Below, piece by piece: positions 19,001-38,467 of a stretch of 43,547 nucleotides of DNA. Below the pieces are notes generated by a model that was not told the DNA's origin, did not search any database, and worked only from the letters and a program-made list of their open reading frames with translations. The stretch spans positions 1-43,547 of the forward strand of contig JAMPYE010000001.1 of NCBI GenBank assembly GCA_023700825.1, given 5' to 3'. Position numbers and translations under genes: made by a program. Position 1 is the stretch's first letter. Each line of letters starts with the position of its first letter. The stretch comes from Thermoanaerobaculia bacterium (GTDB taxonomy: Bacteria > Acidobacteriota > Thermoanaerobaculia > Gp7-AA8).

Positions 19001-19158
19001 AAATGCCATGCGTCGACGCCGTCGACGCGCGCACCGTCGACCGACGACCACTCGCCGGTATCGACGCGGTTCGGCGAAGCGGGCCACCCGAGGCGCGAGA
19101 AGAGCGCCGAGGCGTCGCGCGCCGATCGGCAACTGCGGAGATCGGCCGCGGTGATCAT
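16021..19158 (-). CDS. Large gamma-class N6-adenine DNA methyltransferase (Eco57I/MmeI/PglX-like architecture)
   Basis: 1045 aa. The helical region has LFLYFLQQKGWL and IPYLNGGLF. GTFYTPR is at aa 335-341. Motif I is VIDPACGSGAFL (DPACGSG at nt 17950-17970). QGNSL follows, then a ~120-aa insertion. FDVHF..GGFSVAIGNPPW carries NPPW at nt 17266-17277. A ~400-aa C-terminal putative target-recognition region completes the protein. I saw no clear nuclease motif. Confidence 0.85.
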   Translation of the reverse strand: MITAADLRSCRSARDASALFSRLGWPASPNRVDTGEWSSVDGARVDGVDAWHLIRHGGVDLYAFEAREESSRSAVIPFLSGLSRWNRILEPSVVWFSPSRDSMSLFGCRGTRRLDVTLDTPSADAVDRIASLDLSRTAATVDARALFRNALDRESAGRRFFERFRRALRTIDLAIAAALPAETPRARRDYALLLLSRLLFLYFLQQKGWLDGSHRFIRSSFERAANGKSGFHSRVLAPLFFDCLSTPRARRSASALALGLIPYLNGGLFARSAFEQRNPTLALSDALWREVLDDTFERFSFCANEDDEQGVHIDPEMLGRVFESLMETDERAESGTFYTPRSLVDRLATDAVVEWVAGRDRSLSGAMRSTLEGGDVRLSETEAGTLLSKLRSITVIDPACGSGAFLLSAMRVVETLTRRGAEAAGEPVEADLRARIVERSIFGVDLKSEAVRLCELRLWLAIVSASEHDAASVPPLPNLDRNVLQGNSLAGPLDFLGGARAGIYREWSRALRDREDLVTRYKHAPWGRRDALARALRESDLALSSTMLEKSLDADRTELARLETPVKDLFGTERATIGEESPEALRERIATTARTLARVARGDLEFFAFDVHFAGILATGGFSVAIGNPPWVRSSRIEPGLRRACAERYRFFRRRGAGGFAQSELAVAFVERSLSLLEPGGVFAQLLPSKVLTAEYAATMRREIVKLHELVALRDWSREGKRLFGADVFPLGLVVRNERHSAASLEITESDARWEVSQQSIASSGAGSAWSLAEPECRAVISRLREAFPPLSIALGRMPVMGVKTGANSTFFLDDVDVAEDGVVLRSNGVRLPDRAVVRCVRGRDVRRWSATDSTWMLCPPARRRPDDDVWIERVALALCVAPSAIRLDYLRAEHLGLKVVWRDLSRGFEAAVLPASTTVAGREFAVVPNQTVYSIDASRDDEALALCALLNSTVIDALCLDVAERAKDDHFRLLAATVAATPVPPVKAGSREERALAKLAARGQAGEQVDAELDALVASLFGIDERELATLARFAFRRRGARRA

Positions 19159-25775: not shown

Positions 25776-25839
25776 GGGGGCGGTCGAGCCGGACGGCCTA
25801 ACGCGCGAGCGGAGCATTACACGAAAACCGGTGCGTGTG

Positions 25840-25861
25840 GCGCAGGCACTCTTGCCTGCGC
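25840..25861. repeat. REP-like GC hairpin, copy 1
   Basis: gcgcaggca-ctct-tgcctgcgc: a perfect 9-bp stem in the convergent intergenic region. Confidence 0.6.
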
Positions 25862-25922
25862 GTCGCCGACGGCGGCCCTCAAACTCCGGATTGGTGCGTC
25901 GACAGGGGGGCTTTGCGCCGCG

Positions 25923-25942
25923 CGCAGGCAAGCGTGCCTGCG
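25923..25942. repeat. REP-like GC hairpin, copy 2
   Basis: cgcaggca-agcg-tgcctgcg: the same stem sequence as copy 1, about 80 bp away in the same orientation. Confidence 0.6.
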
Positions 25943-25969
25943 GCACATGAAAGCCCGCGGCGACACCCG

Positions 25970-26377
25970 CTACCGCACCAGCGCCGCGACGGTCGTCACC
26001 GCGAGCTGCGCGACGACCACCCATGCCTGCGACACCAGAAGCCGCCGCGCTCCGCGGCATCGGTCGGCGATGCTCCGCGCGACCCCTCCCGCCTTCCCGC
26101 CCGTGATCGAGCGCAACGCGGCGTCGAGGTCCGCGACCTCGAGGCGGCCCTCGGCGAGATCATCGAACAGTCGGCGATCGAGCCCCACGCGAAAACCGAA
26201 GTACCTCCCGACGAGCCCGAGCGCCAGAGTCGCAATCGAAGCCGGCTGCCATCCGAAACCGAATAGCAATGCCGCGGCCGCAAGCCCCGTGAGCCCCGCC
26301 GAGATCAGGTCGGTCCGGCCGCCGGCGCCTAACATCTCCGCGGTAACCCTCGCTTCCGCCCGTTCCTCGGGAGTCAC
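25970..26377 (-). CDS. Hypothetical small membrane protein (last gene of the lipid operon)
   Basis: 135 aa with about 3 hydrophobic helices. The GTG start overlaps the upstream TGA (GTGA at 26374-26377). Confidence 0.5.
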   Translation of the reverse strand: MTPEERAEARVTAEMLGAGGRTDLISAGLTGLAAAALLFGFGWQPASIATLALGLVGRYFGFRVGLDRRLFDDLAEGRLEVADLDAALRSITGGKAGGVARSIADRCRGARRLLVSQAWVVVAQLAVTTVAALVR

Positions 26378-27687
26378 GTCAACTCCTCGAGGGCGGAGCG
26401 GAGCCCGGGGTAGACGACGAGCGCGGGCCGCGCCTCACGAACCATCCGGATCGCGGCGTCGACGTCTGCCGCGCGCCCGGTCGCGACGAGCCATGCGACG
26501 ACCGCCGAGGCGCTGCGCGAGAGGCCGACGGCGCAGCACACGAGCACGGGGCCCTGCGCCCGCGCCTCTTCGATCGCGGCGACCGCATCGCGGAGCTTCT
26601 CCGATGGCGGCACGGTGAGATCGAGCACCGGGATCGAGCGATAGCGCTGACCCTTCGCAACGGCGAAAGGCAGTTCGGCCGACAGATCGACGATTGCGGC
26701 GAAGCTTTCACGATCGCCGTCGAGCGGGCCGCGAATGCGTCCGACGGAGACACCGTCGGCCACGATGCCGGACTTCGGACGCCAGGCGTTGCGAATTCGC
26801 GAGTTCATCCAGGCGCCGAAGAAGTACGGCGCGAGCAATCCCCACGCGCCCACGCTCATCGTGCCGCGCGGAGTCTTCTGGAATCCGCGCTCACCGATCG
26901 CGAGATAGTTGAGCGCGACCACGTACAGAGAGCCGGCCGGCCAGAACATCCAGAGCCAGGAGCCTCCGAGGAGGGACGGAATGGCCACCACCACGGCGCC
27001 GAGCGCGTAGATCGCGGCGAGACGTTTCCTCTGCGCGTCGCTCGCGACCGACATTCCCGCGAGCGGCGAGCGCGTCCCCTCCGGGAGCGCCCAGAGAATC
27101 GCGAAGCCGACCGCGAGTCCCGTCGGGATGTCGATGAAGTGATGCTGGTAGGTGGTCAGGACCGACACCCCGACGAGGAGCATCCAGACGTGCAGCACGA
27201 CGCGCAGCCACATCGGCCGCGTGTGAGCCGCGAGGCGGACCCAGATCAGGACGAGCAGACTGATGTGGAGCGACGGCGCCTGGTTGAACGGCTTGTCGAA
27301 GCTGCCTAACGCCGTAAAGAGCGCGCCGTAGATGCCGTCGGCCGCTGGGCGATCGAACGAGAACCGAAGGGGAAACGCGATGAAGCAGGCGACCGAGATC
27401 AGCTGCGCGGCGAGGAGGCGCTGCGCGTGCCGGTCGAGCTCGCGGCGCGTCGCGCAGATCAGCAGCGAGAGCCCGTAGAAGAGATCGATCGACCAGTAGG
27501 GAACGATCGTCCAGGGGACGAACGGAATCGCATGCTCCCAGCCGTACGCAATCGACCCAACGCCGAGCCTCCGGCTCGCGAGCGTGTTCGCGAGACCGTA
27601 GCTCGCGAAGAAGAAGGGCCCGAGCAGCGCGAGCCATCCAAGCGCGCGAAGCAGGGGCCGCTTTTCTGCTGCGCCGCCGTCGCTCAT
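26374..27687 (-). CDS. PAP2-like phosphatase / dual-specificity (Cys-based) phosphatase fusion protein
   Basis: ORF trimmed to the ATG at 27685-27687 (ATGA overlap). The N-terminal polytopic domain has PSLH and HHFID (PAP2 motifs 2 and 3). The C-terminal domain has VCCAVGLSRS, a CX5R(S) P-loop. Confidence 0.75.
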   Translation of the reverse strand: MSDGGAAEKRPLLRALGWLALLGPFFFASYGLANTLASRRLGVGSIAYGWEHAIPFVPWTIVPYWSIDLFYGLSLLICATRRELDRHAQRLLAAQLISVACFIAFPLRFSFDRPAADGIYGALFTALGSFDKPFNQAPSLHISLLVLIWVRLAAHTRPMWLRVVLHVWMLLVGVSVLTTYQHHFIDIPTGLAVGFAILWALPEGTRSPLAGMSVASDAQRKRLAAIYALGAVVVAIPSLLGGSWLWMFWPAGSLYVVALNYLAIGERGFQKTPRGTMSVGAWGLLAPYFFGAWMNSRIRNAWRPKSGIVADGVSVGRIRGPLDGDRESFAAIVDLSAELPFAVAKGQRYRSIPVLDLTVPPSEKLRDAVAAIEEARAQGPVLVCCAVGLSRSASAVVAWLVATGRAADVDAAIRMVREARPALVVYPGLRSALEELT

Positions 27688-29435
27688 GCCTTCCGAACCG
27701 CCAGCGAGACGGTGAAGATCCCCCACTCGTCGATTCGCTGCGCGACTTTTCGGAATCCCGCGCGCTCGACGAGCTGGTCCATCTCCGCCTGCGTCCTTCG
27801 CCGCATCACCCACGCCGCGCCACCGCGATGGCTGGTCAGCGCTCTCGCGATGAGTTCGAGCTGCGGATGCCACGGCTGCCCCGTATAGACGAGCATTCCC
27901 CCCTCGGGGACCGCGTCGGCGATGCCGGCGAGCGAGCGGCCGACCATCTCGTTGTCGGGGAAGAGCTCGTAAAGGCCCGAGACAATCGCGAGCGTCGGAC
28001 GCGGGTCGACCGACGCCAGGCTCGCGCGATCGAACGCGTCGCCCTTTACGAAGCGTGCGATGTCGCCGAGCCCCTTCTCCTTGATGAGTTTCGCTCCGGC
28101 TTCGACGTTGATGTCGCTGTAGTCGCGCAGCAGGATCGAGTCGGGACGGACCTCGCCCGAATCGATCGCCTCGAGCGCGTAGCGTCCGTGCCCGGCCGCG
28201 ACGTCCATCACGCGGACCGGCTTTCCTTCCTCGCGAAGACGCCGCGTCGCGATGCGCAGCAGCTCCTCCACGTGGATCTTTCTCTGGCGGATGCCGCGCC
28301 ATCCGATCGAGTTGAGGTAGTTGCGGTCGATGAGCCTGCCGATCGGCCCGATGCCCGCCGGCCTGTTCCGGTACACGTAGTCGAGCGTGCTGCCGGAGTC
28401 GAAGCCCGTCTCGTGTCCGAGCTTCACGCCTTCGGAGAGCGCGCCGCCGAGCTTCATCGACGCGCGCGTCGCGCTCCAGTAAAGCCCGCGCGGCGAGAGC
28501 GGCGAGAGGGGCGCCGCGAGCCTGTCCGACTCTTCTTTCGTCGCGCCCGAAAGATGCGCGTTCGTCAAGTCGACGAACTTCCGCGGCTCCGCGAAGCGCG
28601 CCGTCACGAACGCGCGGATCTTCTCGACCACCGGCGCGCGGTCGCGCTCGCCGAGCGTGTCGTGGAAGAAGCCCGGGATGACGTGCCTCTCCTTCACCGG
28701 GCTCCCGAGCTTGTCGAAAAACTCGTGCTGCGGGCCGTGATGGACGACCCAGTCGGCGCCCGAGACGAGCAACTGCACGGGAACGGTAATCGCGTTCGCA
28801 TCGGCGACGATCCGCTCCGCCGTCTCGTAGAGCGCGACGAGGATGTTGACCGAGATCGGGCGGGAGATCAGCGGGTCGCTCTCGTACGACGCGATGCGCT
28901 CCGGATCGTGCGTGAGGAACTTCGCCTTCACATAGCTGTTGACGTAGAAGTTCCCTCGCAGCTTCTGCATCAGCGCGAGGCCCGGCCGCGCGAACGGAAC
29001 GTAGAGCTTCACCTTGAACGCCGGCGACGCGAGCACCGCGCAGCGGATGCGCGGTGCGTAGTCGTGGAGCCAGGTCGAGACGAGCACGGCGCCGACGCTC
29101 TGCGCGATGACCGCCACGTCCTCGACCGCGCAGCCCGCCTGCGCCGCCGCGTGCTCGACGAAGTCGTTCACGTCGCGCACCGACGTGCCGAGGCTCGGGC
29201 TGAATCCTCTCGGACCCGGGGATCGGCCGTGGCCGCGCGCGTCCCAGGCGAAAAACTCGAACTCGCCCAACCCGAGCTCGTCGACGAGATGCATCATCCG
29301 ACCCGAATGCTCGTGACCGCGATGGAAGAGGACGATCGCCCCCGCCTTCCGCGTTCCCGGCTCGACCGGCCAGTGACGATAGAAGAGCTCGACGCCGTCG
29401 AACGTGCGGAAGCTCCGCTCCTCGACCCGCCTCAT
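27684..29435 (-). CDS. Alpha/beta hydrolase (lysophospholipase-like) / class I SAM methyltransferase fusion protein
   Basis: ORF trimmed to the ATG at 29433-29435 (ATGA overlap). FHRGHEHSGRM and the IAQSVGA elbow sit in the N-terminal half. VRVMDVAAGHGRY (SAM motif I) sits in the C-terminal half. Confidence 0.75.
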   Translation of the reverse strand: MRRVEERSFRTFDGVELFYRHWPVEPGTRKAGAIVLFHRGHEHSGRMMHLVDELGLGEFEFFAWDARGHGRSPGPRGFSPSLGTSVRDVNDFVEHAAAQAGCAVEDVAVIAQSVGAVLVSTWLHDYAPRIRCAVLASPAFKVKLYVPFARPGLALMQKLRGNFYVNSYVKAKFLTHDPERIASYESDPLISRPISVNILVALYETAERIVADANAITVPVQLLVSGADWVVHHGPQHEFFDKLGSPVKERHVIPGFFHDTLGERDRAPVVEKIRAFVTARFAEPRKFVDLTNAHLSGATKEESDRLAAPLSPLSPRGLYWSATRASMKLGGALSEGVKLGHETGFDSGSTLDYVYRNRPAGIGPIGRLIDRNYLNSIGWRGIRQRKIHVEELLRIATRRLREEGKPVRVMDVAAGHGRYALEAIDSGEVRPDSILLRDYSDINVEAGAKLIKEKGLGDIARFVKGDAFDRASLASVDPRPTLAIVSGLYELFPDNEMVGRSLAGIADAVPEGGMLVYTGQPWHPQLELIARALTSHRGGAAWVMRRRTQAEMDQLVERAGFRKVAQRIDEWGIFTVSLAVRKA

Positions 29436-30061
29436 CGAACCTCCGGCCCGGCAGCGCCGGCCTTGTCTGCGAGTTCCTTCAACCCGTTCTTCACGCGATT
29501 CACCGACGTGAGCGCCGCCAGCCCGGCGATCGCCCAGACGATCCAGTGCGCCCACTCCGGAAGTACGGTCGTCACGGCGATCCAGATTGCGAGCAGCGAG
29601 AAAACGAACGCGCGGTCGCTCTTGCCCATCGGACCGTCGTAGCGCCGCGACGCGCCCGTCATCACCGCGACGGTCCCGGTCATCTCCGAGAGCGCCGACG
29701 CGAAGATCGCTGCACAGATGGGGCGCCAGTCGAGCGGCGCGACGAAGGCGAACGGAAGGTAGAGCGCGGCGTCGGAGACGACGTCGGAGAGCTCGTTTAG
29801 GTACGCACCGAGCGACGACTTCTGACCGAACTCGCGCGCCAGCATGCCGTCGACGGCGTTGAGCGCCATCCGCAACAGCATCCAGACCGGGATCGCCGCG
29901 AACCAGACGCGCGGCCCGCCGATCAGCGCCAGGCCGATCGAAACCGACACGACCCACGCGGTCACCGTCACCTGGTTCGCCGTGACCCCGGCGCCGTACA
30001 GCCGCCGGACGATCGGCCGGAGGATGGCCTGGAAGCGGGACTTGAGGGCGTAGATCGTCAT
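29432..30061 (-). CDS. CDP-alcohol phosphatidyltransferase family protein
   Basis: 209 aa, polytopic. DGMLAREFGQKSSLGAYLNELSDVVSD fits D-G-x2-A-R-x8-G-x3-D-x3-D. Confidence 0.85.
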   Translation of the reverse strand: MTIYALKSRFQAILRPIVRRLYGAGVTANQVTVTAWVVSVSIGLALIGGPRVWFAAIPVWMLLRMALNAVDGMLAREFGQKSSLGAYLNELSDVVSDAALYLPFAFVAPLDWRPICAAIFASALSEMTGTVAVMTGASRRYDGPMGKSDRAFVFSLLAIWIAVTTVLPEWAHWIVWAIAGLAALTSVNRVKNGLKELADKAGAAGPEVR

Positions 30062-30238
30062 GGGGAGTTGTTAGTTGTTAGTTGTTAGACGGTTTGCGCG
30101 CGAAGTCCGCTGTTCGCAATTGCCGCCAGAACCTCGATGCGCAACTGGGACCCTAATTCGTTTCGTCAATGTTGCCGGTCGCGATGCCTGTCTAACAACT
30201 AAAAACTAACAACTAACAACTCCCAACTAACAACTGCC
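30062..30238. repeat. Low-GC intercistronic element bounded by inverted heptad arrays (TTGTTAG)n / (CTAACAA)n
   Basis: The left arm at 30062-30090 is ggggagttgttagttgttagttgttagac. The right arm at 30190-30224 is gtctaacaactaaaaactaacaactaacaactccc. It equals the reverse complement of the left arm apart from one extra 7-nt unit. An unrelated ~99-nt core separates them. Confidence 0.8.
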
Positions 30239-31189
30239 TCATCCGAAGTAAAACCGCGTCACGTGAAAAAACACCGGCCCGGCGAAGCAGAGCGAGTCGA
30301 TCCGGTCGAGGACGCCTCCGTGCCCTTCGATGAGCGCACCGAAGTCCTTCACGCCGCTGTCGCGCTTGATCGCGGACATCGTCAGCCCTCCGGCGAACCC
30401 GAGGATCGTGATGAGCAGCGACATCCCCGCGGCCTGCAGCGGAGTGAACGGGGTGATCCACCAGAGTCCCGCGCCGAGCGCCGTCGCCGACAGCACGCCG
30501 CCGATCAGCCCCTCCCAGGTCTTGCTCGGGCTGATCGTGGGCGCGACCTTGTGCCGGCCGAAGAGCTTCCCCCAGACGTACTGCAGCACGTCGCTCATCT
30601 GGACGACGATCACGAGAAAGAGCAGGAGCCCCGCGTTGTTCGTGTAGCCCTTCAAGTCGAGCATGAGGAGCGCCGGCACGTGGCTCACGCAATAGACGCA
30701 GATCATCAGCGCGAACTGAATCTTCGCGGCGCGTTCGAGGAAGCGCTCCGGGTCGCCCGAAACCGCGATTCGAGCCGGGAGGAACAGGAAGGCCCAGACG
30801 GGGATGAAGATGCTGAAGAGGCCGTACCACTGGATTGCGACGAGCAAGTACTGGAACGGCACGACGATGAAGAAGATCCAGGAGAGCGCCATGTGGTCGC
30901 CGCGGCGCGTCGGCGTGAGCGTGACGAACTCGCGCAGCGCGAGGAACGAGAGAAGCGCGAAGAGCACGGTCGCGCCGATCACCCCCGTCGCGACGGCGGC
31001 CCCGAAGACCGCGACCATCATCCACCAGGCGCGGATCCGGGCGTTCAGGTTTGCGATCGTCGCGCGGCCGGCGTCGGTCGACGTCCGCTTCGAAAGCACG
31101 AAGCCGATCAGCGACGCGATCACCAGGAGCGCGCCGACACCGCCAAGCAGGTACGCCGTTTCTCTCGACAACGAAAATGCGAGACTCAT
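30239..31189 (-). CDS. cdsA: Phosphatidate cytidylyltransferase
   Basis: 316 aa, polytopic. SAIKRDSGVKDFGALIEGHGGVLDRIDS is the CdsA signature. ATGA overlap with plsC. Confidence 0.9.
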   Translation of the reverse strand: MSLAFSLSRETAYLLGGVGALLVIASLIGFVLSKRTSTDAGRATIANLNARIRAWWMMVAVFGAAVATGVIGATVLFALLSFLALREFVTLTPTRRGDHMALSWIFFIVVPFQYLLVAIQWYGLFSIFIPVWAFLFLPARIAVSGDPERFLERAAKIQFALMICVYCVSHVPALLMLDLKGYTNNAGLLLFLVIVVQMSDVLQYVWGKLFGRHKVAPTISPSKTWEGLIGGVLSATALGAGLWWITPFTPLQAAGMSLLITILGFAGGLTMSAIKRDSGVKDFGALIEGHGGVLDRIDSLCFAGPVFFHVTRFYFG

Positions 31190-31794
31190 CCCAGACGCTC
31201 CAGTTCTCCGCGAAGCCGCGCGAGGAAGTCTTCCTTCGTTTCACCCGTCCCGAGCCGAAGCGGCGGACCGAGCGTGATCGAGCTGAGCAGCGGAACCGGA
31301 ACGATCTCCCCTTTCGGAAGGATTCTGTTCAGGTTCTCGATCATCACCGGGACGAGGTCGACCTGCGGCTTTTTCGACGCCACGTGGAAGATGCCGCTCT
31401 TGAACGGCGCGATCGCCGTCCCGTCGCCCCGCGTCCCTTCGGGGAAGATGATCAGCGAGTCGCCCGCCTCGAGCGCGGCGACCATGTCGTCGACCGGGCT
31501 CCGTTCGCGGTTCTGCCCCGTCCTGTCGACGAGCACCGCGCGGAAGACCTCGCGCGCCAGGAAACGCCGAACCGCCGACTTGTCCCAGTAGTCCGATCCC
31601 GCGACCGGACGGGTCTTCGCGCGCTCGGCCGACGGAAGCGCCGACCAGAGCACGACGAAATCGAGATGGCTCGAGTGGTTTGCGAAGTAGACGCGCTGGC
31701 CCGCGGCGGGCTCGTACCCGGCGTAGCGCACGGTCGCGCCCGCGAGAAGGCGCGCGACACCCGCGATGAAGCCGGCGAGGATCCCGCCGCTCAA
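31186..31794 (-). CDS. plsC: 1-acyl-sn-glycerol-3-phosphate (lysophospholipid) acyltransferase
   Basis: 202 aa with NHSSHLD (HX4D) and FPEGTRG motifs. The TTG start directly abuts the PfkB TGA. Confidence 0.8.
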   Translation of the reverse strand: MSGGILAGFIAGVARLLAGATVRYAGYEPAAGQRVYFANHSSHLDFVVLWSALPSAERAKTRPVAGSDYWDKSAVRRFLAREVFRAVLVDRTGQNRERSPVDDMVAALEAGDSLIIFPEGTRGDGTAIAPFKSGIFHVASKKPQVDLVPVMIENLNRILPKGEIVPVPLLSSITLGPPLRLGTGETKEDFLARLRGELERLG

Positions 31795-32718
31795 TCAGGC
31801 CTCGAGCTCGAAGTCTTCGAAGTGAGTGAGCGCGCGGAACTCCCGGTACCGCGACTCGATGTCGTCGCGACTGATCGCGCGAAGGCGGTCGAGCGAGAAC
31901 GCCTCGACGTTGTACGACGCGACGACGCTTCCGAACACGATCGCCCGCCGCATCTCCACCTCGGTCAGGTGCTTCCGCGACGCGAGGTACCCGAGGAAGC
32001 CGCCGGCGAAGGTGTCGCCCGCGCCGGTCGGATCGAACACGCTCTCGAGCGGGTACGCCGGGGCCGCGAAGATCCGGTCGTCGTGGAACATGAGCACGCC
32101 GTACTCTCCCCGCTTGACGACGAGCGTGTCGATCCCGATGTCGAGGATCGCCCTCGCCCCCTTGATCAGGTTGGCTTCGCCGCTGAACTGCCGCACTTCG
32201 GCCTCGTTGATCAGCATCAGGTCGATCGAGCGCATCACCTTCTCGAGCGACGCCTTCTTCGAGTCGATCCAGTAGTTCATCGTGTCGAGCGCGACGAGCT
32301 TCGGCCGCCCCGCCTGCTGCAGCACTTCGTACTGAAGGTCGGGGTCGATGTTCGCGAGGAACAGGACGTTCGGGTCGCGATGCACGGCGCCGAGCTTCGG
32401 CTTGAAGTCGGCGAACACATTGAGCTGCGTGTCTTTCGTCTGCGCGACGTTCAGGTCGTAGCCGTACTCGCCGCGCCAGAAGAAGGTCTTCGCGCCGGGG
32501 ACGCGTTCGATCCCCGAGGTGTCGATGGTGCGGCCGGCGAAGATCTTCATCTCCTCGGCGCCGAAATCGTCACCGACGACGCCGACGACGCTGACGGGGG
32601 TGAAGAACGACGCCGCGACGGAGAAGTACGTCGCCGCTCCGCCGATCGCCTTCTCGACGCTTCCGAACGGGGTCTGAATCGCGTCGAATGCGACGCTGCC
32701 TACGACGGTAATGGACAC
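31795..32718 (-). CDS. PfkB-family carbohydrate/nucleoside kinase
   Basis: 307 aa. DPTGAGDTFAGGFLGYL is PfkB signature 2, and the N-terminal region is GG-containing. The substrate is unknown. Confidence 0.8.
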   Translation of the reverse strand: MSITVVGSVAFDAIQTPFGSVEKAIGGAATYFSVAASFFTPVSVVGVVGDDFGAEEMKIFAGRTIDTSGIERVPGAKTFFWRGEYGYDLNVAQTKDTQLNVFADFKPKLGAVHRDPNVLFLANIDPDLQYEVLQQAGRPKLVALDTMNYWIDSKKASLEKVMRSIDLMLINEAEVRQFSGEANLIKGARAILDIGIDTLVVKRGEYGVLMFHDDRIFAAPAYPLESVFDPTGAGDTFAGGFLGYLASRKHLTEVEMRRAIVFGSVVASYNVEAFSLDRLRAISRDDIESRYREFRALTHFEDFELEA

Positions 32719-32758
32719 GCTGGGCCTCCCTGTGTGCGCCGCTCCCGCGGCGCGACGG

Positions 32759-33625
32759 CTAGTTCAGATACCTTCCGACGATCGGAGCGAGGTCGCGCTT
32801 CACCGCCGCCGGAACCCGCGCCGGATCGCTGAGAAGCGCAAACCGGAGCGCCGACTCGCAGGCGCACTGCCTCTCGCGCTTCGCCACCTTCGACACGGCG
32901 TCGCGGATGATCTTCGTCGCCGTCTTCGCGTTCTTGTGCAGATACTCGACGACCGTCTCGACGCTCACGGCCTCTTCGGTCTCGTGCCAGCAGTCGTAGT
33001 CGGTGACCAGGGCCATCGTCGCGTAGCAGATCTCCGCCTCGCGCGCGAGCTTCGCTTCCTGGAGATTCGTCATGCCGATGACGTCGACGCCCCAGGAGCG
33101 GTAGAGCAGCGACTCCGCGCGCGTCGAGAACTGCGGCCCTTCCATGCAGAGGTAGGTGCCGCCGCGGTGCGTCCGCGCGCCGACCGCTTCCGAGGAATCG
33201 GCCAGGATGTCCGAGAGTTCGTTGCAGATCGGATCGGCGAAGGAGACGTGCCCCACGAGACCGTTGCCGAAGAAGGTGTCGGGCCGGTGCCGCGTGCGGT
33301 CGATGAACTGCTTCGGAAAGACGATGTCGGTCGGGTGGCAGTCTTCCTTCATCGACCCGACGGCCGACGCCGACAGGATCATCTCGACGCCGAGCGCCTT
33401 GAGCCCGTAGATGTTCGCGCGGAAGTTGATCTCGCTCGGCATGAAGCGATGCCCTTTGCCGTGGCGCGCGAGGAAGACGACGCGCACGCCGTCGACTTCA
33501 CCGACGACGTACGGGTCCGACGGCTCGCCGAACGGCGTCGCCACGACCTTCTCGTGGAGGAGCTTCAGCCCCTCCATTTCGTACAGCCCCGATCCGCCGA
33601 TGATCCCGATCCGCGCTTCGCTCAA
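32759..33625 (-). CDS. mtnP: S-methyl-5'-thioadenosine phosphorylase
   Basis: 288 aa. IGIIGGSGLY, FLARHGKGH, PSEINFRANI, CMEGPQFSTRAES and GMTNLQEAKLAREAEICYA match the MTAP family. Confidence 0.9.
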   Translation of the reverse strand: MSEARIGIIGGSGLYEMEGLKLLHEKVVATPFGEPSDPYVVGEVDGVRVVFLARHGKGHRFMPSEINFRANIYGLKALGVEMILSASAVGSMKEDCHPTDIVFPKQFIDRTRHRPDTFFGNGLVGHVSFADPICNELSDILADSSEAVGARTHRGGTYLCMEGPQFSTRAESLLYRSWGVDVIGMTNLQEAKLAREAEICYATMALVTDYDCWHETEEAVSVETVVEYLHKNAKTATKIIRDAVSKVAKRERQCACESALRFALLSDPARVPAAVKRDLAPIVGRYLN

Positions 33626-33664: not shown

Positions 33665-34627
33665 TCAGTGTGCGAATTTCGCGAGCGACGCGTCGATCTT
33701 CTCGCGCACGCGAAGCGCGAGCTCGATCGCCGCGAGACCTTCGCGCGCGCCGACGAGCGGCGCCTCGCGCGTCCGAACCACCTTCGCGAACGCCTCGAGC
33801 TCCGCCCGCAGCGGCTCTTTCTTCTCGACGACGATCGCCAACGGCTCGATCGCCGACTGCTCTTCGCGGTGGATGAGTCGCGCGCCCTTCGCGTCCTGCT
33901 CCTTCGTGTCGACCGAGACGTAGCAGTCGGGGCCGAAGACGCGGAACTTGCGGACGCGGTCGGTGGAGACTCGGCTCGCCGTCAGGTTCGCGACGCAGCC
34001 GCTCTCGAACTCGATGCGGACGTTCGCCATGTCCACCTGACGCGTGAGCACCGGCACGCCGACTGCCTGCACGTCGCGCACCGGAGAATCGACGAACGAG
34101 AGCACGAGATTGAGGTCGTGGATCATCAGGTCGAGCAGCACGTCGATGTCGAGCGAGCGGCCCGAGAAGACTCCGATGCGCTCCGCCTCGATGTAGCGCG
34201 GCGAGCCGAGAAACGGCGCGGCGGCGACGATCGCCGGGTTGTAGCGCTCCACGTGGCCCACCTGGATGATCCGCCCCTGCGACTTCGCGAGCTCGATCAG
34301 CATCCGCGCGTCGTCGACGGTCGACGTGATCGGCTTCTCGATCATCACGTCGCAACCCGCCTCGAGAAGGCTCTTCGCAACCTCATAGTGCTTGTCGGTC
34401 GTCGTCGCGACGACCGCGCACTCGACGTGCTCCTCGAGCTCGTCGACGGTCGCGAACCGGCGAAGCTTCAGGTTGGACTCGACCTCGGCTGCAACCGCGT
34501 CGCGAGGCTCGACGAATCCGACCACCTCGACCCCCGGCATCTCCGTGAGCACGCGCGCGTGCAACCTGCCGAGGTAACCGGTTCCGACGACGCCGATGCG
34601 CACCTTGTCCATCGCCCCTCCCGCCAT
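33665..34627 (-). CDS. Gfo/Idh/MocA-family NAD(P)-dependent oxidoreductase (possible UDP-GlcNAc 3-dehydrogenase GnnA-like)
   Basis: 320 aa with the Rossmann motif VRIGVVGTGYLGRLHA. Its ATG overlaps the lpxA TGA by 1 nt. The GnnA idea is based on context only. Confidence 0.7.
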   Translation of the reverse strand: MAGGAMDKVRIGVVGTGYLGRLHARVLTEMPGVEVVGFVEPRDAVAAEVESNLKLRRFATVDELEEHVECAVVATTTDKHYEVAKSLLEAGCDVMIEKPITSTVDDARMLIELAKSQGRIIQVGHVERYNPAIVAAAPFLGSPRYIEAERIGVFSGRSLDIDVLLDLMIHDLNLVLSFVDSPVRDVQAVGVPVLTRQVDMANVRIEFESGCVANLTASRVSTDRVRKFRVFGPDCYVSVDTKEQDAKGARLIHREEQSAIEPLAIVVEKKEPLRAELEAFAKVVRTREAPLVGAREGLAAIELALRVREKIDASLAKFAH

Positions 34628-35409
34628 CAGCGGACGACCCCGCGCTTCGACGCGCTCTTGATGAACTCCGAGAAGTAGCGCACCTCGGGAATGTCCCCGA
34701 GCTCGGCGTCGATCCGCTCGAGCGCTTCCTGCTGCAGCAGCTTCGAGCGCGTGAGCAGCTTGTAGGCCTTGCGCAGCGCCTCGATCGACTCGGCGGAGAA
34801 ACCCTTCCGCTGCAGGCCGATGTGGTTGATCCCGTACGTCTTCGCCGGCCGCGAGCCGACCGTCTTCACGAACGGCAGCGCGTCCTGCGTGACGATCGTG
34901 TCGCCGCCGAGGAACGCGTGATTGCCGACCCGGCAGAACTGGTGGACCGCGGTGAACGCGCCGATCGTCGCGAAGTCGCCCACCTCGACGTGACCCGCGA
35001 GCGTTCCGCAGTTCGCGAAGATCACGCTCGAGCCGACGTGGCAGTCGTGCGCGACGTGCGAGTACGCCATGAAGAGGTTGTTCGAGCCGATCGTCGTGAC
35101 GCCTCCGCCGCCAATCGTGCCGCGGTTGACCGTGACGAACTCGCGGAAGAGGTTGTCGTCGCCGATCTCGAGCCGCGTCTTCTCCCCGCCGAACTTGAGG
35201 TCCTGCGGATCGGTACCGAACGACGCGTTGCCAGTTAGGCGGTTCCGCTTGCCGAGCTTGGTCGGGCCCATGATCCGGACGTGCGGGCCGATCTCGGTGC
35301 CGTCGCCGATTTCGACGCCGGCCTCGATGACGGCGTACGGCCCGATCTCGACATCGCTTCCAATGATTGCGGTGGGATCGACGATCGCGGTTGGATGAAT
35401 TTTCGACAT
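34627..35409 (-). CDS. lpxA: Acyl-ACP--UDP-N-acetylglucosamine O-acyltransferase
   Basis: ORF trimmed to the ATG at 35407-35409. MSKIHPTAIVDP, hexapeptide repeats, SHVAHDCHVG and GINHIGLQRKGFS are typical of LpxA. Confidence 0.9.
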   Translation of the reverse strand: MSKIHPTAIVDPTAIIGSDVEIGPYAVIEAGVEIGDGTEIGPHVRIMGPTKLGKRNRLTGNASFGTDPQDLKFGGEKTRLEIGDDNLFREFVTVNRGTIGGGGVTTIGSNNLFMAYSHVAHDCHVGSSVIFANCGTLAGHVEVGDFATIGAFTAVHQFCRVGNHAFLGGDTIVTQDALPFVKTVGSRPAKTYGINHIGLQRKGFSAESIEALRKAYKLLTRSKLLQQEALERIDAELGDIPEVRYFSEFIKSASKRGVVR

Positions 35410-35414
35410 GCGCT

Positions 35415-35852
35415 CTACTCCGGCCTCGCGGCCATCACACTCAGGATCTCCGCCTCGGCGACGACCTTGCCGTCGACCGTGGCGACCCCGCGAACGCGCG
35501 CCGAGTTCGACCGGCGCTGGATGCACTCGGCGTCGATGATCAGCTGATCGCCAGGCACGACCGGCCTCCGGAAACGCGCCTTGTCGACACCTCCGAACAG
35601 GAAGAGCTTCGAGTCGCGGTCCTCGAGATCCAGGAGAAACATCAGCGCGCCGCACTGCGCCATGCTCTCGAGAATCAGCACCCCGGGCATGATCGGCGCA
35701 CCGGGAAAGTGCCCCGTGAAGTGCGGCTCGTTCGCCGTCACGTTCTTGATCGCCTTCACGCGCTTCCCCGGCTCGAGCTCCAGCACCCGGTCGACCAGCA
35801 GCAGCGGGTAGCGGTGAGGCAGCAGTTTCATGATCTCCTGGATCGTCAGCAT
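35415..35852 (-). CDS. fabZ: 3-hydroxyacyl-ACP dehydratase
   Basis: 145 aa; LPHRYPLLLVDRV and FTGHFPGAPIMPGVLILESMAQ are FabZ signatures. Confidence 0.95.
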   Translation of the reverse strand: MLTIQEIMKLLPHRYPLLLVDRVLELEPGKRVKAIKNVTANEPHFTGHFPGAPIMPGVLILESMAQCGALMFLLDLEDRDSKLFLFGGVDKARFRRPVVPGDQLIIDAECIQRRSNSARVRGVATVDGKVVAEAEILSVMAARPE

Positions 35853-35859
35853 GCGAGTG

Positions 35860-36906
35860 TCATTCCCCTTTGTCCGCGAGTTTGCGCTCGAGCTCGGCGA
35901 CGCGGCGCTCGAGCTCCTTCACCCGGGCGAGCTGCTTCGGCATCCGCGCAATCGTCGCGTCGCTGCGCAGCTTCTCCCCGAGCGGGCGAGCCGGTGAACC
36001 CGAAAGCTGGATCGGCCCTTCCCAGTCCTTCGTCACGGCCGCCTGCGCCGTCACGACGACCTGGTTGCCGAGCTTGATGTGCCCGACGAGCCCCGCCTGC
36101 CCCGCCAGGACGCAGTAGTCACCCAGCTCCGAGGAGCCGGCGATGCCCGACAGCGAGACGAGAAGGCAGTGCTTGCCGACGCGGACGTTGTGCCCGATCT
36201 GCACGAGGTTGTCGATCTTCGTCCCGTCGCCGATAACCGTCTCGCCGAGCGCGGCGCGGTCGATCGTCGTCGAGGCACCGATCTCCACGTCGTCGCCGAC
36301 GCGCACGATGCCGATCTGCGGGATCTTCATGTGCCGGCCGCGCGTGGTCGCGAAGCCGTAGCCGTCCGAGCCGATCACCGCGCCGGCATGGACGATGTTC
36401 CGCTCGCCGAGGATGCAGCCGTGGTAGATCGTCACGTTCGGATAGAGCAGCGAGCCACGGCCGACGCGAGCGTTCGCGCCGATCGAGCAGCCGTCGAAAA
36501 TCACGCAGTCGTCGCCGACCTCGGCGTTCTCGCCAACAGTGACGAACGGGCCGATCGCGACGCCGCTGCCGAGGCGCGCGGTCGGCGCGACTGAGGCCAG
36601 CGGCGATACGCCGATCGCGGGTCCCGGTACGGCGGCGAACCACTTCGTGAGGATCGTCGCGAGGGCGACGTACGGGTCGTCGACACGGACGAGCCGGGGG
36701 GACTCTCCCGTGTGCTTCCGTGAGACGAGGATCGCCCCGGCGGCCGAGGAGGCGACCTGCGCATCGTACTTCGGGTTCCCGAGGAACGAAATATCCGACG
36801 GGCGGGCGTCCGCCAGGGTCTTCACCCCGGTGATTTCGAGCCCGGAGTCGCCCGAAAATGCCCCTCCGACGAGCTCGACGATGTCACATAGACGAACGGC
36901 CACCAT
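35860..36906 (-). CDS. lpxD: UDP-3-O-acylglucosamine N-acyltransferase
   Basis: ORF trimmed to the ATG at 36904-36906. ISFLGNPKY, a long hexapeptide-repeat domain and a C-terminal coiled coil fit LpxD, as does the lpxD-fabZ-lpxA order. Confidence 0.9.
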   Translation of the reverse strand: MVAVRLCDIVELVGGAFSGDSGLEITGVKTLADARPSDISFLGNPKYDAQVASSAAGAILVSRKHTGESPRLVRVDDPYVALATILTKWFAAVPGPAIGVSPLASVAPTARLGSGVAIGPFVTVGENAEVGDDCVIFDGCSIGANARVGRGSLLYPNVTIYHGCILGERNIVHAGAVIGSDGYGFATTRGRHMKIPQIGIVRVGDDVEIGASTTIDRAALGETVIGDGTKIDNLVQIGHNVRVGKHCLLVSLSGIAGSSELGDYCVLAGQAGLVGHIKLGNQVVVTAQAAVTKDWEGPIQLSGSPARPLGEKLRSDATIARMPKQLARVKELERRVAELERKLADKGE

Positions 36907-37168
36907 CGGCCGCGCATTGTAGCAGCAGAGGCTCTGGCAGGACGCAAAGCTGCCCGAAAAGCCGATACTTCGGATCGGTGAGTGGAAGCTGGCCCGCCGC
37001 CAGCCTGGCCGAAAGCCCGGCTCAGTTCTGTCGAGAGCTTCGCTCCAGTTCCTGGAGACGATGCTCGAGCTGCTGCACCCGAGACTTGAGCTGGTCGAGC
37101 TCGCGATCAAAATCCGCCCGATTCAACGAGCGGGTCTCGAGTTTCGCGACCGCGGCGACGAGCGCCTT

Positions 37169-37357
37169 CTACTCATCCTCGAGCCGGTCGAATCGAACGT
37201 ATACCGAGTCGAAATGAGTCAAGGCCTCGCGGCGGGCTCCCGTTACCTCGTCCTGCAGGCTGGACACCTGCGTGCGAAGTCCGTCGATTCCGGTCTCGAT
37301 CTGCGACGCGATGTCGCGGCGAACCTGGTCGAGCAGCTTGAGAATCTCTTCAGACAT
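37169..37357 (-). CDS. Small coiled-coil protein (62 aa to an in-frame TAG; the frame stays open 48 more codons to 37022)
   Basis: MSEEILKLLDQVRRDIASQIETGIDGLRTQVSSLQDEV... has heptad-like periodicity. After the TAG at 37169-37171 the same frame reads KALVAAVAKLETRSLNRADFDRELDQLKSRVQQLEHRLQELERSSRQN, then TGA. Confidence 0.5.
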   Translation of the reverse strand: MSEEILKLLDQVRRDIASQIETGIDGLRTQVSSLQDEVTGARREALTHFDSVYVRFDRLEDE

Positions 37358-37383
37358 CGTATGAATCGTAGAATGGACCCGGA

Positions 37384-38409
37384 CTAGAACCAGTCGGTCA
37401 CGAGAAACCCGGCCCCGATCGTCGTCTGCTTGTGGTCGTAGTCGATCATCGACTCGCCGTAGCCGTCGAAGATCTGCACGTAGCCTCTCAGTTTCGCAGC
37501 AACGGGGAACGCCCAGTCGAGCTCCACGGCTCCTTTGCCGGTGTCGAAGTTGTGCCTCACCAGCGCGCTCCAGCGGTTCCTTCCGTGCTGATACGACGCA
37601 AGGACATCGCCGTTGCCCATGTAGTCTTCGATGTCCGGATTGTTGTCGTCCTCGGCGTCTTCCTCGAGCCGGTGCCACACGCGCCCGAGCAGCGCGAAGT
37701 TGCCGCGCTCGAGCCCCGTCTGCACGTAGACCCGGTTCCAGCTGCGCGAGAGCGGATCCGAGCGCCCGTTCGACTGATGCACCACGCCGAAGCTCACGAA
37801 TCGCCCCTCGATCCCGAACAGCTCCCAGGGTGTGCGAAACACGAGCATCGCCTCCGGCTCGTAATTCGTCTCGCGGAACGGGCTCGAGATGTCTTTGTTG
37901 TAGACCTGCCAGTGGCTCTGCTGGGTGTAGCCGACCCACACGTCACCGTGGTCGCCGAACAGGCCGTCCACCGCCTTGAGCTTGAGGCTCAGCTGGAACT
38001 TCGCCTCGATCTCGTCGATGCTCTCGGACGGGTCGTCGGGGTCGAGTTGCAGGTACGGAGCGCTGTTCGGGGCGTCGCTGTATCGCGCCGGCAGGACGTA
38101 GGTCGGGTGGTGAGGCTTCACCGTGAAGAGCGTCCGCCGGGAGGTCTGGACCAGCTCCCAGCGCTCCTGCATCGGCGACGGGGCCTCGACAGGCGCGCTC
38201 GTCGCCTCGGCCAGCGCGGGCAGCACGCCCGGCTCGGTGGCCTTCTGCGAGAGCTCGTCGTAGCAGCGAAGGCGCTCCGCGTCGTTTTCGATCGCCGCAC
38301 ACCTGGGCAGGTTCGGGGCATCCGCGCCGGACGCTGCCGGCGCGGCGAGAAGGAGCAGACCCGTTGCGAGCATCGCAAGCAGACGGGTCGGCGCAGAAAT
38401 CGTCATCAT
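37384..38409 (-). CDS. pldA: Outer-membrane phospholipase A (OMPLA)
   Basis: The start is set at the MM pair (38404-38409). After a signal peptide come YTQQSHWQVYN, GVVHQSNG (catalytic His-x-Ser) and a C-terminal aromatic residue (DWF). Confidence 0.85.
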   Translation of the reverse strand: MMTISAPTRLLAMLATGLLLLAAPAASGADAPNLPRCAAIENDAERLRCYDELSQKATEPGVLPALAEATSAPVEAPSPMQERWELVQTSRRTLFTVKPHHPTYVLPARYSDAPNSAPYLQLDPDDPSESIDEIEAKFQLSLKLKAVDGLFGDHGDVWVGYTQQSHWQVYNKDISSPFRETNYEPEAMLVFRTPWELFGIEGRFVSFGVVHQSNGRSDPLSRSWNRVYVQTGLERGNFALLGRVWHRLEEDAEDDNNPDIEDYMGNGDVLASYQHGRNRWSALVRHNFDTGKGAVELDWAFPVAAKLRGYVQIFDGYGESMIDYDHKQTTIGAGFLVTDWF

Positions 38410-38467
38410 ATTCACCGGCGCATTAGACCCGTCGCCGCGCGGTGGCGCATCCGTAGGAAACACCCGG

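Follow-up and report, generated by a model that had tools for sequence, protein, structure and literature searches.

Which lipid product could account for a compact set of six lipid-enzyme genes carried by a metagenome-assembled genome (MAG) of the Acidobacteriota (Thermoanaerobaculia)? The genes occupy the minus strand between positions 25,970 and 31,794 of contig JAMPYE010000001.1, a stretch of 43,547 nucleotides (nt) that was analysed at its full length and is referred to below as the window. A sequence-only reading of this stretch had taken the genes for an accessory, orphan pathway, and that description is retained here; what it had overlooked is the identity of the locus with the ynbABCD operon of Escherichia coli, together with the experimental literature on that operon. 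Judged by orthology, the six genes are a ynbABCD-type operon plus two further genes, for an acyltransferase and a small membrane protein. We estimate the probability at roughly 55% that this extended operon represents an accessory, self-contained branch of CDP-diacylglycerol (CDP-DAG) metabolism, producing a minor, specialised membrane lipid and not bulk phospholipid.

A tblastn search of annotated plasmid and chromid records with the hydrolase-methyltransferase of the window (YnbC type) retrieved E. coli ynbC, with 58% identity over the full length. The proteins of the remaining core genes are 41% (YnbA), 42% (YnbB, residues 47-313) and 39% (YnbD) identical to their E. coli counterparts, again over essentially their whole lengths. 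In the annotated E. coli locus (L083), ynbA encodes a CDP-alcohol transferase, ynbB a phosphatidate cytidylyltransferase, ynbC a bifunctional hydrolase-methyltransferase and ynbD a PAP2/dual-specificity phosphatase. The YnbB-type protein matches the CdsA equivalog model PRK11624 in residues 154-308 only (106 bits; cut-off 385), and this C-terminal match, combined with the orthology to YnbA-D, identifies the locus as a ynbABCD-type operon.

All six open reading frames are on the minus strand (Table 1), as the sequence-only reading had it, each of its domain assignments was confirmed by Pfam, and the motifs that it had picked out all occur in the proteins: HSSHLD, FPEGTRG, GHGGVLDRIDS and a CX5R loop, here CCAVGLSR. 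Its description of the junctions as uniformly tight holds for four of the five, which are 4-nt overlaps (ATGA in three cases, including the stop of the PlsC-like gene and the start of the YnbB-type gene, and GTGA in one); the fifth, between the CdsA paralogue and the transferase, is a spacer of 177 nt, and none is a direct abutment. The sole abutment falls outside the six genes, where the pfkB stop codon (31795) is followed immediately by the TTG start of the PlsC-like gene, so that the exact start of the latter is uncertain. A third-position G+C content of 0.80-0.91 in all six frames is a coding signature. The G+C content of the cluster (0.63-0.70) is the same as that of the window, and recent horizontal transfer was rejected on this ground. 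The nearest loci also come from Thermoanaerobaculia MAGs, with YnbC-type proteins 88-92% identical to that of the window.

The conservation of the gene set was scanned with one genome per species, which gave at least 517 genomes with a YnbC relative; 80 of the loci were fetched. The same six genes are clustered in about 70 of these 80, in several phyla, with the order permuted and the membership kept, and nearly all fetched loci with enough flanking sequence carry the complete set. The common order in Proteobacteria, seen in Variovorax, the Pseudomonas fluorescens group, Reyranella, Zoogloea, Xenophilus and others, is YnbA, YnbC, YnbD, small membrane protein, PlsC-like protein and YnbB; divergent arrangements of the same six genes occur in Burkholderia ambifaria and Shinella. 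The suspicion, voiced from the sequence alone, that similar clusters exist under generic names in other Gram-negative bacteria is thus borne out, both by the fetched loci and by Pseudomonas protegens PBL3, whose cluster is named only generically, as a ‘membrane phospholipid remodelling/biogenesis module’ (PMC13541209). The four-gene core is found in 4769 of 5426 complete E. coli genomes (88%), and in Shinella, Rhizobium and Sinorhizobium the cluster is carried on chromids or plasmids. A further neighbour conserved across genera (inositol-phosphate synthase, glycosyltransferase or regulator) was not found in the flanks of the fetched loci. Since the gene set is conserved and its catalytic residues are kept, chance juxtaposition can be excluded; as far as homology tells, the ynbABCD operon type has been conserved, active sites included, in more than 500 species belonging to at least two phyla. 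In some other Thermoanaerobaculia MAGs (L003, 8001-11349; L005, 3863-7223) only the genes for the YnbC-type, YnbD-type and small membrane proteins adjoin each other, with no YnbA, YnbB or PlsC-like gene within the available flanks. These three genes therefore seem to form the tightest sub-module.

The PlsC-like protein has an N-terminal membrane anchor and the motifs H40-SSHL-D45 and F117-P-E-G-T121-R122, in which H40, D45 and F117-T121 do not vary among 50 homologues. It scores 57.3 bits with TIGR00530 (cut-off 103) and 30.7 bits with PRK15018 (cut-off 501), and because both values lie below the cut-offs it is regarded as a member of the acyltransferase superfamily and not as a PlsC equivalog. 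In about 70 loci its gene belongs to one cluster with that of the CdsA paralogue, nearly always as the immediate neighbour. In the window the YnbB-type gene lies downstream of pfkB and the plsC-like gene; the housekeeping context uppS-cdsA-rseP-bamA is not present around it.

The YnbA-type transferase scores best among NCBIfam models with archaetidylinositol-phosphate synthase (NF040950, 70.4 bits; cut-off 180), followed by phosphatidylinositol phosphate (PIP) synthase (NF045883, 52.6 bits; cut-off 170), and reaches only 17.5 bits with PgsA (TIGR00560; cut-off 109) and 23.4 bits with PssA (TIGR00473; cut-off 107). A profile of 13 family members placed the Mycobacterium tuberculosis PIP synthase PgsA1 (PDB 6H53) as the nearest protein of solved structure, with an end-to-end alignment (E 3.6e-12). 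In PgsA1 the residues D68, D71, D89 and D93 form a di-metal site, R155 and R195 hold the phosphate of inositol phosphate, and R94 is typical of enzymes using this acceptor (PMC6506517). The four metal ligands correspond to N68, D71, N89 and D93 of the window protein, each identical in 80 of 80 aligned sequences including E. coli YnbA (the 81st is gapped there). R94 is replaced by V94, at a position that is hydrophobic throughout the family, and R155 and R195 correspond to the invariant R150 and R189, the first of these equivalences presuming that the two proteins differ by one residue in the length of a loop for which the crystal structure shows disorder. D97, R139, K147, D149, R150 and R189 are identical in 81 of 81 sequences of the family.

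The end of the transferase motif, which had been read as G-x3-D-x3-D, needs correction: the complete motif of the window protein is N68-x2-D71-G-x2-A-R-x8-G85-x3-N89-x3-D93-x3-D97. The signature N-x2-DG-x2-AR-x8-G-x3-N-x3-D-x3-D, which we use as the mark of the family, is the same in all 80 aligned sequences that span it, E. coli YnbA among them; it was defined in this analysis and does not come from the literature. Going by these residues, the altered metal site sets the YnbA family apart as a distinct subfamily. The retention of R150 and R189 together with the loss of R94 suggests that the acceptor probably bears a phosphate or a similar anion and is not inositol phosphate. This agrees with the fact that E. 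coli is not known for a de novo synthesis of inositol phosphate.

Could the cluster nevertheless provide this bacterium with its housekeeping cdsA, plsC and pgsA, serving bulk phosphatidylglycerol (PG), cardiolipin and the precursors of phosphatidylethanolamine (PE)? It lies near lipid A genes (lpxD-fabZ-lpxA) and pldA, and no other cdsA, plsC or pgsA homologue occurs in the 43.5-kb window. Against such a role stand the scores of the CdsA, PlsC and PgsA candidates, all far under the equivalog cut-offs, a transferase without two canonical Asp residues, and a distribution that is patchy and sometimes plasmid-borne. Pseudomonas and Burkholderia are also generally known to have housekeeping genes in addition to those of the cluster. 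The same is true of E. coli (PMC6362211), whose orthologous YnbB synthesises CDP-DAG in vitro and cannot replace CdsA for bulk phospholipid (PMC6362211, PMC7018664). We consider a housekeeping function hardly credible. The earlier view of an operon that is accessory to bulk PE and PG synthesis is upheld by these findings, and also by the low PssA score; the accessory status follows from the sub-cut-off scores, from the presence in 88%, and not all, of the E. coli genomes and from the location on chromids and plasmids.

The YnbC-type protein is the most conserved of the set, with identities of 58-74% across phyla versus 39-64% for the others. In its AlphaFold model (predicted local distance difference test score, pLDDT, 80.7) the N-terminal half, an alpha/beta hydrolase, superimposes on the M. 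tuberculosis and human monoglyceride lipases with TM-scores of 0.8-0.85, and monoacylglycerol lipases are also its best matches in a sequence search of the PDB (E 2e-18). The catalytic triad S113-D228-H258 and the S-adenosylmethionine-binding motifs are invariant in 79 YnbC-type sequences, including D411-x-A-A-G415-x-G417, D438 and D466 of the methyltransferase half. For this C-terminal half, a class I methyltransferase with a Rossmann-type fold, the fold search returned only generic small-molecule methyltransferases (Coq5, MitM and RdmB-type), and sequence and profile searches of the PDB yielded no informative solved relative. The family is small, with 961 clusters at 50% identity, and is found mostly in proteins of about 580 amino acids (aa) with the same architecture. 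A scan for anti-phage defence genes with PADLOC gave one weak methyltransferase match (mad2, E 2e-5), which was regarded as generic, and a role in defence was rejected.

In three divergent lineages, the CDP-alcohol transferase, hydrolase and methyltransferase are joined in a single chain. These fusion proteins, P0089, P0252 (807 aa) and P0319 (927 aa), are respectively 75, 55 and 40% identical to the YnbC-type protein of the window, and P0319, from a low-G+C organism, retains the N...N...D...D signature. Such natural fusions are strong evidence that YnbA and YnbC act together, at the cytoplasmic face of the membrane.

The properties of YnbC also raise the question of whether the operon remodels or turns over existing phospholipids, either by deacylation and reacylation of the Lands type or by releasing a methylated signal or stress product, for instance a head group that bears a methyl or the methyl ester of a fatty acid. 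A hydrolase resembling monoacylglycerol lipases and lysophospholipases and fused to a methyltransferase would suit this role, as would the dedicated acyltransferase of the cluster and the conservation of YnbC, by far the best of the set. In E. coli, moreover, the ynbA promoter is activated by the envelope-stress regulators BglJ-RcsB (PMC3950696) and ynbB is cold-induced (PMC11413397). Pure turnover, however, would need neither a CDP-DAG synthase nor a CDP-alcohol transferase, both of which are invariant members of the cluster with intact active sites, and it is precisely YnbA that occurs fused to YnbC. Remodelling is therefore judged an improbable explanation of the operon as a whole.

The YnbD-type protein was modelled by AlphaFold (pLDDT 90) as eight transmembrane helices, six of a PAP2-like domain and two more, followed by a dual-specificity phosphatase (DSP) domain. 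The latter, with D356 and C385-x5-R391, superimposes on Tk-PTP and the small dual-specificity phosphatases (DUSPs) with TM-scores of 0.75-0.80 and on the mitochondrial phosphatase PTPMT1 with 0.70-0.72; of 75 sequences, 74 retain C385, R391 and the general-acid residue D356. These DSP matches dominated the fold search of the model, which returned nothing informative on the PAP2 half. In that half, motif C2 (P138-S-L-H141) and the C3 residues S175, H182 and D186 (S175...H182-H-x2-D186) are invariant. Of motif C1, P114 alone is invariant, the basic positions varying between R, H, Q and T, and the Arg of C3 is replaced by Val. A PAP2 domain without the basic residues of C1 is typical of the phosphotransferase branch of the superfamily, for example the sphingomyelin synthases. 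For the PAP2 motifs a periplasmic location is predicted, and for the DSP domain a cytoplasmic one. Taken together, the lack of a conserved C1 and the predicted periplasmic position suggest that the PAP2 domain may act in another compartment than the remaining enzymes. Residues 223-421 of the YnbD-type protein (27021..26425) are matched by the N-terminal part of the NCBIfam model PRK12361, a 546-aa ‘hypothetical protein’, which suggests that a membrane-tethered module of two transmembrane helices and a DSP domain has been reused in another architecture.

The small membrane protein has no match in Pfam or NCBIfam. In about 70 loci a homologue is encoded immediately 3' of the YnbD-type gene (phmmer E-values down to 6e-15 in Proteobacteria), and the homologues share the motifs R-x3-D-x3-F and R-x4-R-x2-G-x3-L.

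Published work on the ynb genes centres on YnbB, whose over-production raises the level of the glycolipid MPIase and restores MPIase on CdsA depletion (PMC6362211, PMC7018664, PMC11413397). In a strain with enterobacterial common antigen (ECA) solely in its ECA-PG form, transposon insertions in ynbB are disfavoured, as found by transposon sequencing (Tn-seq; PMC8609368). YnbD is the fourth PAP2 protein of E. coli, with no assigned function (PMC7413402), and a ynbC transposon mutant accumulates polyphosphate in one strain background (PMC2435150), presumably as a stress effect. The literature searched assigns no function to YnbA or YnbC. Searches with PF12147/Methyltransf_20 and with the product names of the Prokaryotic Genome Annotation Pipeline (PGAP) returned nothing, and combined enzyme names returned only the P. 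protegens gene list; that the product of such clusters is undefined, as the sequence-only reading believed, agrees with this literature.

The link of YnbB to MPIase suggests a different product, namely a DAG-pyrophosphate glycolipid of the MPIase type, which the operon would make or recycle: YnbB would provide CDP-DAG, YnbA would join it to a sugar-1-phosphate, by way of the phosphate of the sugar, to give DAG-pyrophosphate-sugar (‘compound I’), and the PAP2 domain would recycle DAG-pyrophosphate as the phosphatases acting on undecaprenyl pyrophosphate (C55-PP) do for undecaprenyl carriers. Besides the over-production and Tn-seq results, this proposal can draw on the PAP2 enzymes PgpB, YbjG and LpxT, which commonly use lipid pyrophosphates (PMC7413402), and, more speculatively, on the Arg pair and the less negative metal site of YnbA, which would suit a phosphate as the nucleophile. 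On the other hand, the conserved genes of the cluster and its flanks include none for a glycosyltransferase or a flippase, the MPIase papers attribute the synthesis of compound I to CdsA and YnbB with no mention of YnbA, and the MPIase level of the ynbB knockout is normal. The proposal also leaves the hydrolase-methyltransferase, the DSP domain and the acyltransferase without a role and the wide taxonomic spread unexplained; Pseudomonas, Variovorax and the Acidobacteria, in which the cluster occurs, are not generally known for ECA-type sugars. An MPIase-type product thus appears doubtful.

The reading that we prefer, an accessory CDP-DAG branch, can be set out as a sequence of steps. The PlsC-like enzyme would supply phosphatidic acid or re-form it from a lyso-lipid, and the YnbB-type protein would convert it with cytidine triphosphate (CTP) to a private pool of CDP-DAG, an activity shown for E. 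coli YnbB. The YnbA-type transferase would then pass the phosphatidyl residue to an anionic acceptor, which, to judge from the conserved Arg residues of the enzyme, is probably an alcohol that carries a phosphate and is not inositol phosphate. The extra phosphate might be stripped off on the cytoplasmic side, by the DSP domain of the YnbD-type protein. Physically beside YnbA, as the natural fusions suggest, the cytoplasmic YnbC-type protein may deacylate and methylate the lipid or its head group. The lipid would then flip, and the periplasmic PAP2 domain would dephosphorylate it or transfer its phospho-head group. The YnbB step alone is experimental, the other steps being drawn from folds, residues, fusions and clustering. 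The lipid envisaged by the sequence-only reading, dephosphorylated, methylated and possibly deacylated, is likewise a hypothesis.

Several observations weigh against this scheme. In the lipid phosphatases PTEN and PTPMT1 the P-loop contains basic residues, which are missing from that of the DSP domain (CCAxGxSR). The topology of the YnbD-type protein was derived from hydropathy and positive-inside loop charges only, and YnbA, in which Asn takes the place of two of the four metal ligands, might have an altered chemistry or be only weakly active. A second cdsA, plsC or pgsA is lacking in the window, which is the entire contig. In E. coli the deletion of ynbB leaves phospholipids and MPIase unchanged (PMC6362211), over-expression of YnbD, with the activity of the protein not stated, rescues neither phosphatidylglycerophosphate (PGP) phosphatase nor C55-PP phosphatase mutants (PMC7413402), and the literature searched holds no lipid product for any ynb operon.

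A more far-reaching version of the proposed pathway, which at present seems to us unlikely, would make the product a new class of envelope lipid: formed by a transferase with Asn68 and Asn89 from a phosphorylated acceptor other than inositol phosphate, trimmed and methylated in the cytoplasm by the DSP domain and YnbC, and completed by PAP2-dependent transfer of the head group to a periplasmic or outer-membrane acceptor, or by recycling of DAG-pyrophosphate. If this were true, YnbD would combine in one chain two catalytic sites, one on either side of the inner membrane, and a lipid pathway would be conserved from E. coli to the Acidobacteria.

Table 1. Positions of the operon genes, the structured intergenic regions and the upstream genes in the window
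Feature	Position	Strand	Basis
PlsC-like lysophospholipid acyltransferase, 202 aa	31794..31186	minus	Pfam PF01553, E 3e-21
YnbB-type CdsA paralogue (CDP-diacylglycerol synthase), 316 aa	31189..30239	minus	Pfam PF01148, E 6e-66
Spacer between YnbB-type and YnbA-type genes, 177 nt	30238..30062		inverted repeat, RNA fold
YnbA-type CDP-alcohol phosphatidyltransferase, 209 aa	30061..29432	minus	Pfam PF01066
YnbC-type hydrolase-methyltransferase fusion, 583 aa	29435..27684	minus	PF12146, E 3e-68; PF12147, E 6e-153 (full length)
YnbD-type PAP2-DSP fusion, 437 aa	27687..26374	minus	PF01569, 27.4 bits (cut-off 27.2); PF00782, E 6e-14
Small membrane protein, 135 aa, two to three transmembrane helices	26377..25970	minus	no Pfam or NCBIfam match
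Convergent intergenic region 3' of the operon	25836..25947		44-nt inverted repeat
PfkB-family sugar kinase and preceding 5'-methylthioadenosine (MTA) phosphorylase	31795-33625	minus	
Envelope-lipid block: pldA, lpxD, fabZ, lpxA, Gfo/Idh/MocA oxidoreductase	33665-38463	minus	
Outer-membrane phospholipase A (pldA)	38463..37384	minus	PF02253

Upstream of the operon, on the same strand and in the order of transcription, lie pldA, lpxD, fabZ, lpxA and the genes for a Gfo/Idh/MocA oxidoreductase, an MTA phosphorylase and a PfkB kinase. The best match of the oxidoreductase is UDP-N-acetylglucosamine (UDP-GlcNAc) 3-dehydrogenase (179 bits, under the cut-off), which hints at lipid A of the 2,3-diamino-2,3-dideoxyglucose (GlcN3N) type; an aminotransferase partner was not seen. 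Both the PfkB gene and the MTA phosphorylase gene are neighbours of the cluster in L001 and L002 alone, its two closest relatives, and are therefore not counted in it; for the same reason the kinase was set aside as a candidate supplier of a sugar phosphate or inositol phosphate to the pathway. Downstream, the neighbour is a convergent amidohydrolase gene. Elsewhere in the window (16021-19158, minus strand) a 1045-aa protein combines Eco57I and MmeI-type N6-adenine methyltransferase domains with an MmeI helicase-spacer domain, and looks like a single-chain restriction-modification enzyme of type IIG/IIL.

The spacer that separates the YnbB-type gene from the YnbA-type gene contains a 26-nt inverted repeat that occurs once in the window. 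Its arms (30063-30088 and 30199-30224) are 96% complementary, lie 110 nt apart and consist of 7-nt tandem units (GTTGTTA / TAACAAC), the 3' arm stopping at the ATG of the YnbA-type gene; the predicted RNA fold reaches -71 kcal/mol (z = -5.3). The same junction has the same architecture with similar arms in L002 (7180-7370), and in L001 (7207-7330) an inverted repeat of unrelated sequence, again built of 7-nt periodic units (GCGAAAG...). This repeat could be a hairpin involved in translational coupling or attenuation, or a small mobile palindromic element; an Rfam search of the window and of the structured spacer gave no match. Beyond the 3' end of the operon, a 44-nt imperfect inverted repeat comprises two identical GCAGGCA-N4-TGCCTGC palindromes (25842-25859 and 25924-25941), of which none would be expected by chance, and may act as a bidirectional terminator without a T-tract. 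A consensus scan for T-tract terminators and promoters gave nothing above the shuffled background.

The system described here is not of a new kind, the ynbABCD type having been known in E. coli for decades as a functional orphan. What is new is the link of the window to ynbABCD, the conserved six-gene unit, the Asn-Asn signature of YnbA with its kept phosphate-binding Arg residues, the YnbA-YnbC fusions and the predicted two-sided YnbD. The ynbABCD operon is one of the few in E. coli that clearly encode lipid enzymes and have no known product, and the one among its proteins that has been studied, YnbB, is linked to MPIase, a glycolipid under debate. Two further genes usually accompany its core, and the six-gene form offers a complete cassette and a well-defined target for lipidomics, for which the Asn substitutions of YnbA and the two faces of YnbD provide precise mutational tests. 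Identification of the product would fill a gap in the knowledge of bacterial membrane lipids, and could confirm or undercut the link to MPIase.

Comparison with known systems places the locus as follows. With PgsA1 the YnbA type shares D71, D93, D97 and the counterparts of the phosphate-binding R155 and R195; it differs in the two metal-binding Asp residues (D68 and D89) that are Asn, and in R94, K135, S132 and R137 of the inositol-phosphate pocket, which are not conserved. It is also distinguished from the synthases of phosphatidyl- and archaetidylinositol phosphate by NCBIfam scores below their cut-offs and by a cluster without an inositol-phosphate synthase gene. PTPMT1 resembles the YnbD type in the DSP fold, the CX5R loop, the general-acid Asp and a membrane tether beside a CDP-alcohol transferase pathway. 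The DSP domain of YnbD is nevertheless closer to the archaeal Tk-PTP and the small DUSPs, and its P-loop lacks basic residues. The analogy with a PTPMT1-style PGP phosphatase, drawn by the sequence-only reading, holds for the fold and is weakened for the function, since E. coli YnbD does not complement a pgpA pgpB pgpC mutant (PMC7413402). In common with PAP2 enzymes of the PgpB, LpxT and sphingomyelin synthase type, the YnbD type has an invariant C2 (PSxH) and C3 (S-x6-H-x3-D) on a core of six transmembrane helices; it differs in the basic residues of C1, which are not conserved (as is typical of the sphingomyelin synthases), and in having a second phosphatase, predicted to be cytoplasmic, joined to the PAP2 domain.

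The six-gene form of Proteobacteria consists of the same six families, the small membrane protein included; its YnbC-type proteins are 69-74% identical to that of the window, and the identities of the other five range from 44 to 64%. The two differ in arrangement, which in Proteobacteria is A-C-D-TM-PlsC-B (TM denoting the small membrane protein) or divergent pairs, whereas the pair PlsC-B comes first in the window. E. coli ynbABCD, in turn, has the order A-B-C-D in place of PlsC-B-A-C-D-TM, and has neither a PlsC-like acyltransferase nor the small membrane protein; the window, by contrast, has a structured 177-nt spacer between B and A and belongs to an Acidobacteriota MAG. Despite these differences, both operons encode the same two fusion proteins with identical domain architectures, their YnbA proteins carry the same variant N...N...D...D signature, and in both the CdsA paralogue resembles CdsA only in its C-terminal half (for YnbB, see PMC6362211, PMC7018664).

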